From positions 12,152-76,151 of the forward strand of contig JBBABX010000001.1 of assembly GCA_041657405.1 (NCBI GenBank): DNA of 64,000 nt, written 5' to 3'. Positions 139 through 39,867 of this stretch are shown in pieces. The notes under the pieces are model-generated. The model worked only from the letters and a program-made list of their open reading frames with translations, had not been told where the DNA came from and did not search any database. Every line of letters starts with the position of its first letter. Position 1 is the first letter of the stretch. The position numbers and the translations under genes were made by a program. This DNA is from Minisyncoccota bacterium (GTDB taxonomy: Bacteria; Patescibacteriota; Minisyncoccia; Phycocordibacterales; XYD1-FULL-46-19).

Positions 139-1653
139 TTAATGATTATTTTTTATCCAAATCAAGGAATTTTTAATTTCTTTAGTAAAACAAACATCAA
201 TAATAAACAAAAACAAACCGTAAACAAGTATCCCTAAAAGAATATAAATTAAAAGAGACCACCAAGAAAAAATCGGCCAAAATTGTTTTAAAAAATAAAG
301 ACCGTAAGCCATTGCCAAACTAGCAATAACGGGTTCAAGAGCTGTTTTAGAAATTCCCCACACTCCTAGATTTATTTCTTGACGCAAAATATAAAGCAAA
401 TATAACTGAGTAAACAATGTTCCCATTGCCACAGTTAAAGCTGTGCCTTCCCCACCAAGAAAAAAGGTTAGGGGAACAATAAAAATAATCATTGTCACTA
501 ATTGAATTGAAGAAGATCTGGTTGGAATCGACGGCCGACCAACTCCGAGAAAAAAAGAATTTGTGATTTGCTCAAAAGATTTAAGAAATCCAACCCAAAC
601 TAAAATTGTCAAAATCGGAACCATTGGCAACCAGCGAGGGCCATAAACGAAAGTTATAATTTCTCGCGCCAAAAGAAACAACCCAAAAGACGCAGGAATG
701 GTTAAGGCAAAGATTAAAGAAGTCACCCGAACATAAGTCCTACGCAAAAAGATCTTATCGTTTTGAATCTTGGCGAAAAGAGGAAATAAAATAGAACCAA
801 AAACTCTGGCAATCTCAACTGCCGGCAACATCCCAAGAGAAAAAGCCATTTGGTAAAAACCAAGAATAGTCGAGCCTAAAATTTTGCCAATTGTCAAATT
901 GTCTCCTTGCCCAATAAAAAAATTTATAATGGCAGAAATTCCTACCCAACGACCATAAAAATAAAGTTCTTTGTTTTTTTTCCAATCAACCACAAACTTA
1001 GGACGGTAGGGGTGAAAGAGATAGGATAAAATTACCGCAAAGAAACGATTGGCAATCGCACCAATAACTAAGGCCCAAACATTATGGAAAATGACAGCAG
1101 CCACAATTGTTGTCGTTATTTCTAAAATAACCACGCAAATATCAAGTTGACTTTTCTTATTAAATTGTAATTCTTTTTGCCATAAAATAACTCCTACATT
1201 TTCAAAACCAATAACAAAAACTGGTAGGGCCAAAATTCTAACCAACAACACCACCATTTCATTGTTATTAAAAAACAAGCCCACCAAAGGCGCGGTCAAA
1301 AAGAGAATGATGGCAACCAAAGTATTCCTAAGAATATTAAAAGACCAGGCGCTATCGATATATTCGTCGACATTTTCCTTTTTATGAATAATTGCCGAGT
1401 AAAAACCAGTCTGGAAAAAATTGTCAACAAGACCAAGGGCAATCGCTGCCATCCCAAACAAACCAAAATCATTTGGGAATAGCAAGCGTGCTAAAATGAT
1501 TGTTCGAACAAACTGAAGACTTTTGATAATAAAACGGCTAATTAAGATAACTAGACTGCTCTGGAAAGCTTTTTGTCCAATATTTGCATCTTTAGTTTCA
1601 AGCCATAATTTTTTAAACTTTTTAGTCAAATTTATTTTTTGAAAAAATATCAT
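139..1653 (-). CDS. Polysaccharide transporter (PST/Wzx, MOP superfamily) flippase.
   Basis: A 504 aa polytopic membrane protein with an N-terminal RLLxPxDFGL motif typical of the PST family, in glycan-cluster context. Confidence 0.65.
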   Translation of the reverse strand: MIFFQKINLTKKFKKLWLETKDANIGQKAFQSSLVILISRFIIKSLQFVRTIILARLLFPNDFGLFGMAAIALGLVDNFFQTGFYSAIIHKKENVDEYIDSAWSFNILRNTLVAIILFLTAPLVGLFFNNNEMVVLLVRILALPVFVIGFENVGVILWQKELQFNKKSQLDICVVILEITTTIVAAVIFHNVWALVIGAIANRFFAVILSYLFHPYRPKFVVDWKKNKELYFYGRWVGISAIINFFIGQGDNLTIGKILGSTILGFYQMAFSLGMLPAVEIARVFGSILFPLFAKIQNDKIFLRRTYVRVTSLIFALTIPASFGLFLLAREIITFVYGPRWLPMVPILTILVWVGFLKSFEQITNSFFLGVGRPSIPTRSSSIQLVTMIIFIVPLTFFLGGEGTALTVAMGTLFTQLYLLYILRQEINLGVWGISKTALEPVIASLAMAYGLYFLKQFWPIFSWWSLLIYILLGILVYGLFLFIIDVCFTKEIKNSLIWIKNNH

Positions 1654-13906: not shown

Positions 13907-15658
13907 TTAATCCAAATCAACTTTGAGCATTTTTTCTAAGACTTCTCTTGGAACTTCTTTATCTTCTTTTTGTCTTATAATTAGGGTTATCGGTTTTTCT
14001 TCTTCTTGAACATTCTTTAATAAATTTTCTTTTGCTTTTGGTTCTTCTTGGGATTTTTCTTCATCTTTAGCTTCTACCGTATTTTTTTTAAATTCTGTTT
14101 TTTCTTTTTTCTTGTCAGCAAAAATTTCTTTCAATACTGATTTCAAATCTTCTTTAGATTGATTAGACTTGGGTTTACTTTTTAAAATATTTAGAGAAAA
14201 TTTTTTAGGAACTTTGTTGTAATTATTATTAACCTTAAACTCAACTTTTTTTTCTTCAAACGTTGGTTTAATCTCATTACTTGGCTTAGGTGTTTGACTG
14301 TTGTGATTTTCTTTCTTTTTAGGTTCCTCTTTCTTCCAATTGTCTTTCCTTTTGACCGTTTCAACTATTATTTCTTCGCCGTACCAATTAACAATTTCTT
14401 TTTGAACTTGTTCACGCGATTTAGCATAAGTCTGTCTAGTATAATTAATAATGGCATCGTGATTAGATTCACCCAAAGCCACGATTGGCGGAATGGTTAC
14501 TGCCGAAAAGGGTGGCGAACCAACGCCATCAATCATTAGTGTTAGATAAATTTGGGCAAAACCCAAATTGACCAAATCTTCTTTAGTAAAAGTCGGCGAA
14601 AAGATTTTTTCTAACAATTCAGCATCAAATGGTCCAACCCGAAATGAAATAATTGAGCCAACGTTGCCAAAAACTGCGTTTCGCACCGTTTCTGGCATTT
14701 GTTCAATATATTGATGTGCAATCGTCAAACTCAATTTATATTTGCGTGCTTCTGCTAAAATATCGGCAAAAGAATCATTAACAAATGATTGAAATTCATC
14801 AACAAACAAATAAAATTGTGGCAAATGAATCAAGCTCGCCGGAGACACTTCCGCACGCGACATGGCCGCTAAATAAATTTTGGTAATAAACATTCCACCC
14901 AAAAGATTAGCATTTTGTTCGCCCAAGCGACCCTTAGATAAGTTTACAATTAAAATCTTCTTTTCATCCATCACTTTTCGTAAATCAAAATTGGATTTAG
15001 GTTGACCGATAATATTCCGAATCAACGGATTAGATGTAAATTGACCAATTTTGTTTTTAATAGCATCACCAGCTTCTTGCATATAACGTTCATTATATTT
15101 GGCAAATTCATCCACCCAAAATGATTTTACCGAGGGATCGGAAATATTATCCACCACCTTTTTACGAAAACCTTTATCCGACAACATTCGATTTACTCCT
15201 AACAAAGTAGAATTCGGGTATTCTAAAAGCGCCAATAGAGTATTGTTTAAAATATATTCCATCCGCGCTGACCAAACATCCGGCCAAATTTTTTTGAACG
15301 TAGACATCAGTCCGTTGGCAACCAAGTGACGTTGGTCTTTGCCTACATCTTCCATGATATTGAAAGCAATCGGATAATCTAAATCAAATGGCGCAAAATA
15401 GATTACGTCTTTGACTCTTTCGGTTGGCACAAAATCCAGTAAGGTTTCTGCCGACTTGCCGTGTGGGTCAATAAACGCCATCCCTTCTCCATTTTTGATA
15501 TCCTGCACTGCCATATTCTCCAACAAGGTTGATTTACCCAAACCAGTTTTCCCAATAACATAAAAATGCCTCGCACGATCTTCCGACTTAATGCCAAAGG
15601 TTGTCCGTTTGCCCCGGAAGTCTGTTTGCGCGAAGTAGTTGACAGTTTGGTTGTTCAT
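13907..15658 (-). CDS. TraD/TraG/VirD4-like (DUF87, FtsK/HerA-superfamily) P-loop ATPase with a ~150 aa lysine/glutamate-rich low-complexity C-terminal tail.
   Basis: Walker A VIGKTGLGKST near the N-terminus, followed by FIDPHG and Walker-B-like LFVDEFQ. The tail is KKEEPKKKEN... It is the first gene of the glycan operon. Confidence 0.5.
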   Translation of the reverse strand: MNNQTVNYFAQTDFRGKRTTFGIKSEDRARHFYVIGKTGLGKSTLLENMAVQDIKNGEGMAFIDPHGKSAETLLDFVPTERVKDVIYFAPFDLDYPIAFNIMEDVGKDQRHLVANGLMSTFKKIWPDVWSARMEYILNNTLLALLEYPNSTLLGVNRMLSDKGFRKKVVDNISDPSVKSFWVDEFAKYNERYMQEAGDAIKNKIGQFTSNPLIRNIIGQPKSNFDLRKVMDEKKILIVNLSKGRLGEQNANLLGGMFITKIYLAAMSRAEVSPASLIHLPQFYLFVDEFQSFVNDSFADILAEARKYKLSLTIAHQYIEQMPETVRNAVFGNVGSIISFRVGPFDAELLEKIFSPTFTKEDLVNLGFAQIYLTLMIDGVGSPPFSAVTIPPIVALGESNHDAIINYTRQTYAKSREQVQKEIVNWYGEEIIVETVKRKDNWKKEEPKKKENHNSQTPKPSNEIKPTFEEKKVEFKVNNNYNKVPKKFSLNILKSKPKSNQSKEDLKSVLKEIFADKKKEKTEFKKNTVEAKDEEKSQEEPKAKENLLKNVQEEEKPITLIIRQKEDKEVPREVLEKMLKVDLD

Positions 15659-15946
15659 GAAGTGCGATAAATGCGATACTAATATACGAATGTATGCGAA
15701 TAAAACGAATAGAAAAACTGGAGGGTAAAGAATACTATCTTAATTATAAAACTTAATCGGTAATAATTCCAGTTCAACCGAAAAAATAGTATACCGTATG
15801 TTGTATATAGTATGTAGTTGATCCGCTATCTTTTTATCAAAAATCACATGACTAATCACGTAAGGGGTCACGTAAATTTTGATAAAAAAAATGACCCCCA
15901 ATCCGCCGAAGCAGACTGAGGGTCAAAGGGTCCAAGGGACAAAGGA

Positions 15947-16636
15947 TCAGGCTTGCGCCAGAGCCGAAGGTTCCGAGAACCCCAGATCTGACTTGCGAGA
16001 GAACACCTGGTCGCCAACACGCCACCCGAGCGGGCTCAGGGCGGAGTTCGCCCAGACGCACCAGCCGCCGCCGCCCCAGTCCACGTCGACCGCGCGAAGC
16101 ACACCAGCCTGGTCCCGAATGTAGAAGATGTTGGCGTAGCCGTTGTTCAAGAGAACACCGTTTTCACCATTCTTCTTCTTCTCCATCAAGAAGAACATTT
16201 CCGTCAAAGTGGTTTCGGATTTCTCCTCGCCACCCAGTTCGGTAATGATGGGACCATCAACTGAAGACTTCCGTAATTTGTGGTAGCGGAGCGTCTGTTC
16301 GCTCGTCGGGTCTTCGGTCTTGCCGTCGCCCGACAGAAACCAGCTGGTAAAGCTGTCCCAGACTGCCGAGATCTTCACCGAAGCGTTGCGCTTGGTGTTG
16401 ACCACAAACTTGTCTTTGGCGACGAACTTGCCGGTGGTTGCGGGAATCACAACCGCTCCAACTGGCTCAAAAATTGAGGGGTTGGGTTTAGCGACCCCAT
16501 TCCAGCAGGGTTCCTTGCGGAGGAACTTCTTCAATTCCCCCAACCACTCCTCCCAGTCCTTTCCAGAGAGTTTCTCAAACAGATCATTCAGCAGTCCCTG
16601 AACCTCGGAGAGTGCTACGCCGAGCATGTCTACCAT
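15947..16636 (-). CDS. GC-rich paralog A: hypothetical protein with an FGE/C-type-lectin-like C-terminus (RGGGW...GDQVFSR). Candidate DGR variable protein.
   Basis: A 229 aa ORF at about 55-60% GC in a ~35% GC window. It is homologous to 18965..19687. The conserved promoter supplies AGGAGG 6 nt before the ATG. Confidence 0.6.
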   Translation of the reverse strand: MVDMLGVALSEVQGLLNDLFEKLSGKDWEEWLGELKKFLRKEPCWNGVAKPNPSIFEPVGAVVIPATTGKFVAKDKFVVNTKRNASVKISAVWDSFTSWFLSGDGKTEDPTSEQTLRYHKLRKSSVDGPIITELGGEEKSETTLTEMFFLMEKKKNGENGVLLNNGYANIFYIRDQAGVLRAVDVDWGGGGWCVWANSALSPLGWRVGDQVFSRKSDLGFSEPSALAQA

Positions 16637-16745
16637 GGTCAGCCTCCTTTCTTCTCTTTTTTGTCAATTTGGTACGGAAACAATTCCTGCACCTTCTACC
16701 TATTATTATACACTCAAACTCATCTTTAGTCAATGGTTTAAATTA
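16637..16745 (-). promoter_or_regulatory. Conserved promoter and 5' leader of paralog A.
   Basis: On the minus strand it reads TTGACT-17 nt-TATAAT, then a ~75 nt leader ending AAAGGAGGCTGACC-ATG. It is about 90% identical to 19688..19800. Confidence 0.55.
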
Positions 16746-16828
16746 AAGATAACCAAAAATAAGTATTTTGACTCCCCCACCTTAAAAATAGTCCGGAGAC
16801 GATTTTTAAGGTGATCAAAACATCTTAA

Positions 16829-16880
16829 AATCCCCCAATCTCCCAAAAATTCGCCTGAATTTTTGGGAGATTGGGGGATT
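16829..16880. terminator. 21 bp perfect inverted repeat (aatcccccaatctcccaaaaa / tttttgggagattgggggatt) with a 10 nt loop. Probable terminator of the upstream gene and insulator.
   Basis: An exact stem read from the sequence, followed by a T-rich tract. It lies between the end of the glycoside-hydrolase-like gene and the paralog A promoter. Confidence 0.5.
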
Positions 16881-16941
16881 TGAGAATTGTTTTTTCATCT
16901 TTTTTCAAGAAAAAAGTCTAAAATTTGATAATTATTTTTAA

Positions 16942-18174
16942 TTATCTGTACGCCCCTATTGTATAAACATTGGCTGGATCCCACATCATCCAAGAAGTCA
17001 GTCCGGCATCATAGACAGCACGCTTTTGCGCTTTAATCATATCAGCAGTGTAATCGGCACCTAGATCAAAATCCTGCAACCACGGCCGGAGTTTGAGAGA
17101 CGAATAACCTTGTGCTACTACTCGTGCAACAGCCGCAGACATTGAGTGTTTTACTATCTCATACGGCACAGAAGCGGGATTTTTGTAATTCAAAAAACCA
17201 GTCGGATAATGCGACGGATAAACCATTGGCGCAACATAATCAAAATACGGAATTGTATTTTCTAAAACTTGACCGATTCCCAAATCATCAGTATTTGTCG
17301 TTACCATACCAAAAACATCAGCCGAAATTGGCACATCAAGACCTTTCAACTTAGCGTCTAAATAAACAAAAAACTTTCGCAGGGCTTCAGCCTGAGTCTC
17401 ACCATCAAGACGCGAGTAAGGATAAGAAATATTGGTCGTATCCCCATCAGACGGAAAACGAATGTAATCAAAATTTAGTTCATCGAAACCAAGACGGTAG
17501 GCTTCTTTGCCAACCGCAACGGTATAATCCCAAACTTCTGGCGCGCTGACATCAAGCCAAGCTATCCCCTTGCGATCGGTCCAAAGCATACCATTATCCA
17601 AACGCTTGAGTGCCAAATCGGGCCTGGTTCGTGATAATAAATTGTCTTGGAAAACCGAGATCCGAGCAATAGTATAAAAATTTTTCTGGTGAAGATAATC
17701 CACAAACTCTGCCAAGTCTTTTACTCGTCCACTCAATTTACCAGTTGCCTCAGTCTCTATATCCATCGAAACAGTGCCAGAATAATCTTTGACGTCAATC
17801 ACCATAGAATTGATTTCTGTTCCCGCCAAATTATTAATGAGACGTTCTCGAATATTTTTGGTCCCGGCTACCCAACTAGACATATAAATTGCCTTGACCA
17901 CAGCTGGCGTCTCTTTATGAGTGACAATTAGCTTAGGTTCTGACTTTTGACTGGAAGTAGCTTGTGCCAGCAAATCATTATTTATCAAACCCGCTATTTC
18001 ACGATTATAAGTCGGTATTTCAAAAGATCCCCAAAACCAAAAAAATAACAGGGTAAAAACGACGACAAAAACCGCCCCTACCAACCATAGAATTTTTTTA
18101 TTAATTTTAATTCTCAAGTTCCGACGCATCAAAATTTGTTTCTTCCGTCTCTGGGACCACTTCTTCCATTTCAA
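16942..18174 (-). CDS. Membrane-anchored putative TIM-barrel glycoside-hydrolase-like protein (DUF4015/GHL-like).
   Basis: An N-terminal TM segment followed by a ~350 aa domain with DYIRFP and DG acidic motifs. The family assignment is tentative. The start is probably the internal MRRNLRIK. Confidence 0.3.
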   Translation of the reverse strand: MKWKKWSQRRKKQILMRRNLRIKINKKILWLVGAVFVVVFTLLFFWFWGSFEIPTYNREIAGLINNDLLAQATSSQKSEPKLIVTHKETPAVVKAIYMSSWVAGTKNIRERLINNLAGTEINSMVIDVKDYSGTVSMDIETEATGKLSGRVKDLAEFVDYLHQKNFYTIARISVFQDNLLSRTRPDLALKRLDNGMLWTDRKGIAWLDVSAPEVWDYTVAVGKEAYRLGFDELNFDYIRFPSDGDTTNISYPYSRLDGETQAEALRKFFVYLDAKLKGLDVPISADVFGMVTTNTDDLGIGQVLENTIPYFDYVAPMVYPSHYPTGFLNYKNPASVPYEIVKHSMSAAVARVVAQGYSSLKLRPWLQDFDLGADYTADMIKAQKRAVYDAGLTSWMMWDPANVYTIGAYR

Positions 18175-18589
18175 TCTTTTTGCGACGCGGTCGTCGTTTT
18201 TTAACTTCGGTCATTTCAGAAATAAAACTAGGTGATTGATCCCTTTCTTCCATCTCGCCTACCGGCTCAGAAGTTATGACTACCGTTTCTTCTTGCACAA
18301 CAATCGGTTCAGAATCTGATTTTTCTTCTAATTCCAAATCCGAATTCGGCTTTAGTTCGGTTATTGCTTCTTGATTATAAGAGAAGCCACTAGTTGACTC
18401 CCGCACAAAACCAAAAATAACTATTAATAAACCAAATAAAAATATTAGAGCTGTCCGCAGGGATTCCGGGAGGCCGGTAAAAGGAATAATCATAACAAGC
18501 AAACCCAGAATCGCGCTGGCCCTGTTACGCCAAATTATGTGTCTCATATGAAGAAAGGATATCATATTTAAAAGTAAGTTAAAAGGCAT
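18107..18589 (-). CDS. Hypothetical small membrane protein with an acidic C-terminus. It overlaps the start of the downstream gene.
   Basis: ORF with two predicted TM helices and no recognisable motif. Confidence 0.25.
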   Translation of the reverse strand: MPFNLLLNMISFLHMRHIIWRNRASAILGLLVMIIPFTGLPESLRTALIFLFGLLIVIFGFVRESTSGFSYNQEAITELKPNSDLELEEKSDSEPIVVQEETVVITSEPVGEMEERDQSPSFISEMTEVKKRRPRRKKIEMEEVVPETEETNFDASELEN

Positions 18590-18964
18590 CTACCTGTCGG
18601 CAGACAGGAAAGTTATTTATCTGCCTTGGGCAGAGAAGCTAAAGATAGAGATAAGGTAGTTTTCAGCTATCAGGTTTCAGCTTTCAGGAGAGATCATGAT
18701 GATAAAAGCACAAATAATTAATAGAACAGACCAGGGCCGGAGACCACGCATCTTTCAGAAGTGGCGGGATTAAAGTGTAAAGATAAAAGTGTAAAATGCA
18801 AAGATAAAACAGCTGTCAGATTTCAGTTGGGGTAATTAAAAAGTCGGTAATTACAAAATCCCCTGGCGCCCCGAAGGGTCCAAGGGATTGAGAGTCGAAG
18901 TGACTGAGGGTCAAAGGGTCCCCGCCTCCGCCAAGACTATGGCGGGCAAGCAAGGGACAAAGGA

Positions 18965-19687
18965 TCAGACTTGCACCGGAGCCGAAGATTCCGAGGGCTC
19001 CAGGTCTAAATTGCGGGAGAACACCTGGAAGCCGCCACGCCACCGAACCGGGCTCCCGACTGAGTCCGCACCGACGTCCCAGCCGCCGCCGCGCCAGTGC
19101 ACGAGGACCGCGCGAAGCACACCATTCTTGTCCCGAATGTAGAATATGTTGGAGAAGCCGTTGTCCAAGAGAACACCGTCTTCACCATTCTTCTGCTTCT
19201 CCATGAGGGAGAACATCTCCGCCAAGGTGGTTTCGGCTTTCGCTTCGCCACCAAGTTCGGTGATGATCGGACCATCAACCGAAGACTTCCGCAATTTGTG
19301 GTAGCGGAGCATCTGTTCGCTCTCCGGGTCTTCGGTTTTGCCGTCGCCAGAGAGGAACCAGTTGGTGAAGTTGTCGCCGAGGCTGGAACAAATACCTCCG
19401 TCTCTCTTCAACTTAAAGTAGTCCTTGTCGACGAACGGAACCGTGGTCGCGGGAATCACAACGGTGCCGACCGGTTTGAGCAAAAGCTCGGGTTTGGCCG
19501 GTTTAACAGGGACAACGGATGCTTGAGGAAGGAGGCAACCTGCCAGTTTCTCTCTGAGACCTTTTTGGTTGCTAGTCCATCCCTCGGCCGTTACCTGATC
19601 AATCTCCCCCGGGCGAGGAGCTTGGCGCAAAAGTGCTGCTTGAAATTCAATATACCACCCCGGGATTTCAGTTAAGGCTGTACTCAT
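18965..19687 (-). CDS. GC-rich paralog B: hypothetical protein with an FGE/C-type-lectin-like C-terminus (HWRGGGW...GGFQVFSR). Candidate DGR variable protein.
   Basis: A 240 aa GC-rich ORF. The core from PVGxVVIPATT to the C-terminus aligns with paralog A; the N-terminal ~60 aa are unrelated. Confidence 0.6.
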   Translation of the reverse strand: MSTALTEIPGWYIEFQAALLRQAPRPGEIDQVTAEGWTSNQKGLREKLAGCLLPQASVVPVKPAKPELLLKPVGTVVIPATTVPFVDKDYFKLKRDGGICSSLGDNFTNWFLSGDGKTEDPESEQMLRYHKLRKSSVDGPIITELGGEAKAETTLAEMFSLMEKQKNGEDGVLLDNGFSNIFYIRDKNGVLRAVLVHWRGGGWDVGADSVGSPVRWRGGFQVFSRNLDLEPSESSAPVQV

Positions 19688-19800
19688 GATGAGCTGTTCC
19701 TTTCTCCTATTGTTTCTTTGTTAATTTGGTACGGAAACAATTCCCATACCTTCTACCTATTATTATACGCCCAAACTCATCTTTTGTCAATGGTTTAATC
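19688..19800 (-). promoter_or_regulatory. Conserved promoter and 5' leader of paralog B.
   Basis: On the minus strand it reads TTGACA-17 nt-TATAAT, then a leader with purine-rich AGGAGAAAGGAA before the ATG. Confidence 0.55.
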
Positions 19801-24661: not shown

Positions 24662-24877
24662 GTTTAAGCATTACAATTTTTTTAGGATATTATCTTTTCT
24701 TCTGTTCCGTTTCCCAATTTAACGATTAAGGGGTATCGAGTTCCTTGTTGTTTCGATTTCTTCGAAAAAAACCGAAAGAGTGCGGAGAACTATCACTCTC
24801 GCCATGTCAATAAATTGACATGGCGATCGACCAGTCAGGCCATTAGCCGTTAAACGGCAAGATCTGACCAGTTCAAT

Positions 24878-26372
<1,495 letters not shown>

Positions 26373-26831
26373 AAAAATATCCGCTTTTTGCTAAAGCTTA
26401 AGCAAGATATTGAAATTTGCATCACTTATAATAGTGGCAAATTTCATAAACGGAACAGAAGAAAAAATAATATTGCTTCTGAGATTTGGCTTTTTCTCGG
26501 TTACTGACACCGAGAAAAGTATTTTGCTGACTTTGCCTTGTCAGTGTTCATCCAGAACACAGATAGGCTTCAGCTTTTACTTGTTTCCAAGTTAAGCTGA
26601 TTTTGTAATGCTTTGATATTAAATTGACAATGAACCCAACAAACGACTATTTATTTATAGCCTTGTTTCTTATTATATATAGTAAAAACAGAAAGTCAAC
26701 CCTGTAAACCGAGAACGACAACGACCAAGAATTTATGGTCTTCAAACTCAAATAAATCAATCAGTAAAAAAATAAGGACTCTTCCTAAAATGACTGTTAT
26801 TAATTTAATAGGACAAACTAATCAAAATTAT

Positions 26832-36466: not shown

Positions 36467-36504
36467 AAAATATTCGAAATCAAACAAATGGTTTTCAAAT
36501 TTCC

Positions 36505-39668
<3,164 letters not shown>

Positions 39669-39867
39669 ATTAGGAAATTTAAAAACCATTATATTTATTT
39701 TTATACTTACATTTTTATTTTAGTGTTCTATGTTTTAAAAACATAGTTCTACCTTTTTCCATCTCTCAAACCACAAGACCCCTTGCATGTCTGATGATGG
39801 CATTCAATTTTCAAAGTTCAGTCATTCAGAGAAACCTTATTCAAGACGGATATTCCAGCAAAGCTGA

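Follow-up and report, generated by a model that had tools for sequence, protein, structure and literature searches.

Two Patescibacteria paralogs as probable targets of a diversity-generating retroelement encoded on another contig

What makes two homologous genes differ at the first and second positions of their last codons, and could a retroelement be responsible when no reverse transcriptase lies nearby? The question is raised by two genes, here called A and B, in a 64,000-nucleotide (nt) stretch of a metagenome-assembled genome (MAG) from a Minisyncoccota bacterium (GCA_041657405.1, contig JBBABX010000001.1, positions 12,152 to 76,151), to which we refer as the window. The original prediction took both genes for remote or orphan targets of a diversity-generating retroelement (DGR). 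In these systems a reverse transcriptase (RT) and an accessory protein copy the RNA of a template repeat (TR) into cDNA, misincorporating nucleotides opposite the template adenines, and the cDNA replaces the variable region (VR) at the 3' end of a target gene. Our analysis supports this proposal: with a probability of roughly 85%, A and B are variable-protein genes of a DGR belonging to a clade restricted to Patescibacteria (the candidate phyla radiation, CPR), whose RT and TR lie on another contig, A being a non-adjacent target and B probably an orphaned VR. That both genes bear VRs made by a DGR is nearly certain.

Much of the evidence comes from the relatives of the two genes. A database search returned 733 homologs of A and B in Patescibacteria, all of them annotated as hypothetical and none with a Pfam domain. 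In alignments of the family the C-terminus follows the pattern AVxVxWxxGGWxVxAxSVExPxxWxxGxQVFSR, where x is hypervariable and the rest highly conserved. Several homologs adjoin an RVT_1 gene, a bAvd gene and a 113–117-nt repeat of the VR, and 24 cis VR–TR pairs in related loci, which usually include an RT as well, carry 12–23 mismatches apiece at TR adenines, with almost none elsewhere (0 in 15 pairs, 1 in 4 and 2–4 in 5); at locus L004, all 15 of the 15 mismatches between VR and TR fall at TR adenines. Across 121 homologs, VR columns in which the TR has an adenine at codon position 1 or 2, as is the case in 16 of the 38 TR codons, have an entropy of 2.67 bits compared with 0.47 bits elsewhere (p = 2e-7). 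In the same set, at least 98% of the residues at TR AAC and AAT codons belong to the set encodable by NNC, TR GAC codons correspond to G, D, V or A, and TR CAG codons to Q, R or L. Since these residue sets match what mutable TR codons can encode, they constitute a signature of adenine mutagenesis, and on sequence evidence this is a genuine family of DGR targets. Many members (L005, L026, L030/L031, L042, L058 and L067) show neither a TR nor an RT in the ~10 kb to each side, one of them adjoining rpsL-rpsG-fusA, and remote or orphan targets seem to be common in the family.

Where, then, are the RT and the TR that would serve A and B? As originally noted, neither is found within the 64 kb of the window, and nor is a third copy of the VR (blastn with word size 7, tblastn). 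A TR at the usual cis position, ~475 nt downstream of the VR start, would fall inside the VirD4-like gene at 13907–15658, in which no TR-like match occurs. The DGR locus was reached both through a scan of JGI metagenomes and through the RT protein. A third paralog, P0018 (WC893_02470), shares its locus-tag prefix with A and is located on a 56,820-bp contig from the same MAG, and the JGI contig L061 encodes its last 75 residues at 100% identity. L061 comprises the cis VR (69–184), the TR (547–663), a bAvd gene on the opposite strand (683–1024, minus strand; PF22296, E = 2e-13) and the RT gene (1014/1068–2096; RVT_1, with LGNLTSQ and YADD motifs read from the sequence). The same bAvd gene is also present in L071–L074. 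The RT protein itself (P0248; RVT_1, E = 7e-25) is recorded on the 56,820-bp contig, where the order is target WC893_02470, TR, bAvd (opposite strand) and RT. The search for an RT and a TR elsewhere in the genome, which the original prediction had proposed as its check, therefore ends on this contig. The exact TR, bAvd and RT recur in GCA_964388635.1 (CAYMBF010000047.1), an assembly that also holds the B locus (CAYMBF010000026.1), and sample ERZ27247350 contains the exact TR, bAvd and RT together with the B locus. Because two independent bins hold both loci, the DGR and the locus in the window can be placed in one genome. A TR-pattern scan of the GTDB representative genomes gave 7 TRs, none of the GCC CTG type found in this TR, which indicates that the DGR contig of the window's species is not in that collection. 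Throughout this DGR lineage bAvd sits between TR and RT and is encoded on the opposite strand (L061:683–1024(-), L006:11926–12117, L071–L074), so a transcript running from TR to RT would pass antisense through avd.

With the TR in hand, the codon-position pattern that first drew attention to the genes can be reassessed. Both open reading frames are present and homologous as described, with 68% identity across the C-terminal 180 residues. For the terminal segment, about 22 of about 27 differences had been placed at codon positions 1 or 2, and our recount over A codons 164–214 agrees closely (22 at positions 1 and 2, 6 at position 3). The claim that third positions dominate upstream fared less well: the conserved core (A codons 94–163) has 12 differences at positions 1 and 2 and 14 at position 3, a weaker contrast than stated. 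The variable segment is also shorter than the ~47 codons proposed, as homology to the TR spans 113 nt, or 38 codons (A codons 177–214, with 18 differences at positions 1 and 2 and 5 at position 3); the TR does not extend to the N/D, Y/F and A/S differences in LLNNGYAN, which represent ordinary divergence. Compared with the core, the shift in codon position has a Fisher p of 0.02 for the originally proposed segment and 0.05 for the VR. The inversion is thus real, yet only modestly significant taken alone. It becomes decisive once the TR is known, as A and B differ at 13 of 26 TR-adenine sites and at 8 of 85 other sites (p = 2e-5).

Gene A fits the TR of this genome closely. Its variable region, VR_A (15996–16108, minus strand), consists of the 113 nt homologous to the TR, within a protein of 229 codons. 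It differs from the TR at L061:547–663 at 18–19 adenine sites and at a single other position (AAT>TGG, third position; p = 1e-14), so that the predicted confinement of mismatches to TR adenines is borne out for this gene. The fit is comparable to that of the cis VR in WC893_02470, which has 17 adenine-site mismatches and 1 non-adenine mismatch to the same TR. Most TRs read GTC GAG at a point where the TR of this genome has a rare GCC CTG ('SAL') variant, and A shares GCC CTG. When A is compared directly with the cis target, there are 3 differences in the 360 nt upstream of the VR and 2 in the 113 nt downstream through the terminator (5 in 473 nt for the flanks combined), against 16 in the 113 nt of the VR, 14 of them at TR adenines. 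This concentration indicates that at least one of the two copies has been rewritten by the DGR since both last shared sequence. A also has the same VR flanks, 3' untranslated region (3'UTR) and terminator as the cis target, and it is likely that A is, or recently was, a trans (non-adjacent) target of this genome's TR.

The same comparison leaves room for a different history, in which A arose by recent duplication of the cis target's C-terminal module, or by gene conversion from it, and was never rewritten in place, all VR changes having occurred in the cis copy. In its favour, the two copies of the module match at 99% outside the VR, all assemblies with VR_A agree on its sequence, and chimeric contigs suggest that the paralogs recombine. 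Yet the cis VR is equally invariant between assemblies, A retains every flank of the cis VR with nothing visible that would exclude it from homing, and there is precedent for DGRs acting in trans and on non-adjacent targets (Wu et al. 2018, PMC5758913); we regard passive duplication as unlikely. Short contigs from three sources (L015 = Ga0172382_10165769; P0245–P0247) join the N-terminus of P0018 to VR_A and the downstream flank of A. Such joins reflect either recombination between the paralogs or chimeric assembly across their 99% identical core of ~360 nt. Contig breaks also fall within gene A (L001, L002) or within the cis target (L034, L061) in several assemblies.

Gene B tells a different story. 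Its variable region, VR_B (19014–19124, minus strand), bears the scar of adenine-site change, without a clean fit to the present TR of the genome: against the TR of L061 it shows 20–21 mismatches at adenine sites, as predicted, and 7 elsewhere, so that the confinement of mismatches to TR adenines holds only in part for this gene. Against the common 'SVE' TR the counts are 22 and 4, and the best TR sampled (L029) still leaves 3 non-adenine mismatches. The coding tail of B has diverged as well. Too many non-adenine mismatches together with a rearranged tail suggest that the last rewriting of B was templated by another TR variant and that drift followed; B is probably an older or orphaned VR, and we think it fairly likely that this genome's TR does not serve it.

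B could instead be an active target of a second, unsampled DGR elsewhere in the genome with an 'SVE'-type TR, which would be expected to read GGTGTGCTTCGCGCGGTCAACGTGAACTGG...TCA GTC GAG AAC CCG AAT... The gene is intact, conserved and preceded by a perfect promoter match, and it stands closer to SVE-type TRs (3–4 non-adenine mismatches) than to the SAL-type TR of the genome (7). Against this, no sampled TR fits B with fewer than 3 non-adenine mismatches, where most cis pairs have 0–1; the ancestral terminator and the tail of B are rearranged; and the assemblies with B yielded only one RT/TR contig. A second DGR is therefore doubtful, and an orphaned VR remains the preferred account of this gene.

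Several observations weigh against the view that A and B are targets of this DGR, or against parts of it. The VRs showed no variation between assemblies, with a single sequence for VR_A across 4 of them, for VR_B across 4 and for the cis VR across at least 2. As the assemblies compared are nearly clonal (1–2 single-nucleotide differences in 6.6 kb), this identity neither shows nor excludes activity. VR_A carries its one non-adenine mismatch to the TR, and A is otherwise so nearly identical to the cis target that the differences at its adenine sites could all stem from the cis copy. The homology between VR and TR stops at TCTCG, with patchy similarity beyond, and no pair of initiation of mutagenic homing sequences (IMH/IMH*) can be defined. 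Finally, it is MAG binning that links the loci to one genome, albeit with agreement between two independent bins. If the RT/TR contig had been mis-binned from another organism of the community, A and B would be orphans in a genome with no DGR. The link is one of MAG membership only, and many Patescibacteria that co-occur carry closely related DGR cassettes; such an error is nevertheless very unlikely, given that both loci are held by two independent MAGs and one further sample, that the core common to A and the cis target is 99% identical and both have the rare GCC CTG variant of this very TR, and that contigs bridge the N-terminus of the cis target to the flank of A. Ordinary divergence of paralogs under diversifying selection, without any retroelement, could appeal to the modest codon-position contrast between A and B (p = 0.02–0.05), yet it is effectively already refuted by differences that track TR adenines (p = 1e-12 to 1e-14), by the restriction of residues at TR AAC/AAT codons to the NNC-encodable set across 121 homologs, and by the physical adjacency of TR, RT and bAvd in many relatives.

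If A and B are indeed targets of this DGR, the RT encoded with bAvd on the 56.8-kb contig would copy the TR RNA and misincorporate opposite its adenines, and the mutagenized cDNA would replace the VR at the 3' end of a target gene. Rewriting would hit ~16 codons (mostly AAC, AAT and GAC in the TR), which may lie on the ligand-binding face of a C-type lectin (CLec)-like domain, and adenine mutagenesis would leave the scaffold codons untouched. Gene A would be rewritten as a non-adjacent target of the TR beside WC893_02470; gene B would have been diversified by a TR of the commoner 'SVE' type and would not be rewritten by the present one.

What then is the conserved GC-rich sequence that follows both genes, and the extra GC hairpin of B, which the original prediction likened to IMH or cruciform elements? 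Both features are real. The conserved sequence consists of a coding tail after the VR (SR(N/K)S.L.SSEPSAPAQA), short repeats and a hairpin with a T-run. In A, the 3'UTR (15926–15946, minus strand) contains short TCCTTTG / TCCCTTG / GACCCTT(TG) repeats and is followed by an intrinsic terminator (15883–15925, minus strand; 15-bp stem, UUCG loop and T8 run in a terminator scan; -30.2 kcal/mol, z = -4.4), and the module common to A and the cis target ends just beyond it, at ~15874–15882. Most family members have 3–5 GAYCCTTTG-like direct repeats between stop codon and terminator (A 15926–15946; B 18949–18964), and these are retained even in members with a diverged coding tail. A hairpin with a T-run behind it occurs in 47 of 50 distinct family flanks, the stem having 41 different sequences; a conserved hairpin and T-run with a varying stem sequence point to an intrinsic terminator. 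In B, the hairpin with the arms cccgcc...ggcggg (18918–18958, minus strand) contains a 30-nt insertion (18919–18948) that recurs in two other family members, L022 and L017, the latter with a cis TR. Where the ancestral terminator had its 3' arm, B now has another, terminator-like hairpin (18857–18889, minus strand), which is followed by a weak T tract and fails a test for a hairpin with T5. The 3' hairpin was not taken for a DGR cruciform, since it lies 70 nt from the VR end, has a T-run in 47 of 50 relatives and differs in its stem. The TR has no counterpart of this 3' element, the homology having stopped at TCTCG, so that a canonical IMH/IMH* pair is not evident; coding tail, 3'UTR repeats and intrinsic terminator would account for what had been likened to an IMH or cruciform.

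The composition of the two genes is equally distinctive. Their GC content is 0.56–0.58, as claimed (0.65–0.71 at third codon positions), compared with 0.38 for the window, which had been put at ~35%. In the window and at L004, L005, L006 and L061, GC content is high only in the target genes (0.51–0.57); adjacent RT genes have 0.34–0.39 and host flanks 0.34–0.44. TR and target DNA from MAGs labelled Paceibacteria matches that from MAGs labelled Saccharibacteria at ~90% identity. Together, the GC contrast and this identity hint at either horizontal spread or constraint at the nucleotide level. One speculative and rather improbable scenario would be a portable GC-rich target cassette, made up of the C-terminal CLec-like domain, VR, 3'UTR repeats and terminator, that is joined by recombination to unrelated N-terminal domains and spreads both inside Patescibacteria genomes and from one to another, the GAYCCTTTG-type repeats taking the place of a canonical IMH and marking any copy for rewriting in trans by a single DGR. 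If this were true, the cassette would equip these tiny genomes with a small set of binding proteins, each diversified independently.

Does the protein domain that carries the VR resemble those of known DGR targets? AlphaFold models of A and B (predicted local distance difference test scores of 82 and 83, respectively) place 2–3 helices at the N-terminus and, with confidence, an alpha/beta domain at the C-terminus, in which the VR makes up the last strands. The top PDB match in Foldseek is a C-type lectin, at a non-significant E of 0.28, and a profile search of PDB sequences returned nothing relevant. The models are consistent, if weakly, with a divergent CLec-type fold for the C-terminal domain. 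Membership in the FGE-sulfatase or DUF1566 families, as first suggested, finds no echo at the sequence level: a Pfam scan of A, B and 121 family members gave no match, including to FGE-sulfatase (PF03781) or DUF1566, at E <= 1.

The two genes sit in chromosomal Patescibacteria DNA that also encodes Mur ligases, a VirD4-like ATPase, a glycosyltransferase cluster and 16S and 23S rRNA. Gene A (15947–16636, minus strand; 229 aa, WC893_00115) lies on a 201-kb contig of a 'Candidatus Paceibacterota' MAG and combines an N-terminal helical region of the 'KEPCW' type with the predicted CLec-like domain ending in the VR; gene B (18965–19687, minus strand; 240 aa) has an N-terminal region of the 'PGWYIEFQAALLRQAPRPGEID' type before its own putative CLec-like domain with VR. 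The N-terminal 55–70 residues of the two proteins are unrelated, and no signal peptide or membrane segment was seen in either. Upstream, A and B share a near-consensus sigma-70-type promoter and a 5'UTR of ~60 nt (16645–16733 and 19698–19790), the promoter-like sites being TTGACT-17-TATAAT for A (16705–16733, minus strand) and TTGACA-17-TATAAT for B (19762–19790, minus strand; 12 of 12 matches). A shared promoter and 5'UTR in front of unrelated first 55–70 codons looks like a swap of N-terminal domains inside a conserved expression frame. A DUF4015 gene sits between A and B, and an antisense open reading frame of 192 aa opposite B (19097–19675, plus strand) is most likely no real gene but a consequence of the high GC content. 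Directly downstream of A, on the same strand, is a 583-aa VirD4/TraG-like coupling ATPase (13907–15658) with weak Pfam matches to TrwB_AAD_bind and TraG-D_C; no further conjugation genes were seen near it. The rRNA genes are unlinked, the 16S gene (24877–26375) lying ~10 kb from the 23S gene with protein genes between them; the 23S match (36503–39672) measures 3170 nt against a model of 2925 nt, which suggests an insertion of ~250 nt.

What A and B add is a specific example in which a DGR of the CPR (Paceibacteria) has a non-adjacent target; our understanding of how DGRs work is unchanged. They delineate a target family of more than 700 members that has no Pfam model, with modular N-termini, a predicted divergent CLec-like fold and many members without a nearby RT. 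They also illustrate that codon-position asymmetry can flag VRs that RT-anchored DGR finders would miss, there being no RT or TR within the 64 kb around A and B. Remote targets were not detectable by the approach of the survey by Roux et al. 2021 (PMC8144416), which described cellular DGRs restricted to Patescibacteria (clade 2), with targets that lack recognizable domains and are probably new CLec variants. Wu et al. 2018 (PMC5758913) assigned non-adjacent targets by A-to-N-only differences, found them to be uncommon in CPR and left several CPR VR classes without an assigned fold.

Set beside these known systems, the locus most resembles the CPR DGRs ('DGR clade 2', PMC8144416; 'CPR set', architecture B3, UVR1-6, PMC5758913). 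Like them, it is cellular and found in Patescibacteria, has small targets without recognizable transmembrane or Pfam domains, a C-terminal VR and adenine-specific mismatches, and differs from Bordetella in how avd and TR are ordered and oriented, avd here lying on the opposite strand between TR and RT. It departs from them in that one DGR has a cis target and at least one target on another contig, and in that neither a TR nor an RT occurs within 10 kb of many family members. With the Bordetella phage BPP-1 DGR (Mtd, Avd, TR, Brt) it shares an RT with LGxxxSQ and YADD motifs, an Avd-family protein, an AAC-rich TR and a VR in what is here a putative C-terminal CLec-type domain. Unlike BPP-1, it is chromosomal and not phage-borne, has no recognisable IMH/IMH* pair beyond the end of homology, and its hairpin, 70 nt downstream of the VR, is terminator-like instead of an IMH-adjacent cruciform. 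The Treponema denticola DGR target TvpA has no sequence similarity to A and B, which are much smaller (229–240 aa) and show no lipoprotein or secretion signal; the RT here belongs to the CPR clade and not to 'Lineage 4', which sets it apart from Treponema denticola and other remote-target DGRs (Wu et al. 2018). This is a known kind of system, modestly extended by a non-adjacent target in a CPR DGR and by a family that commonly lacks a nearby RT.

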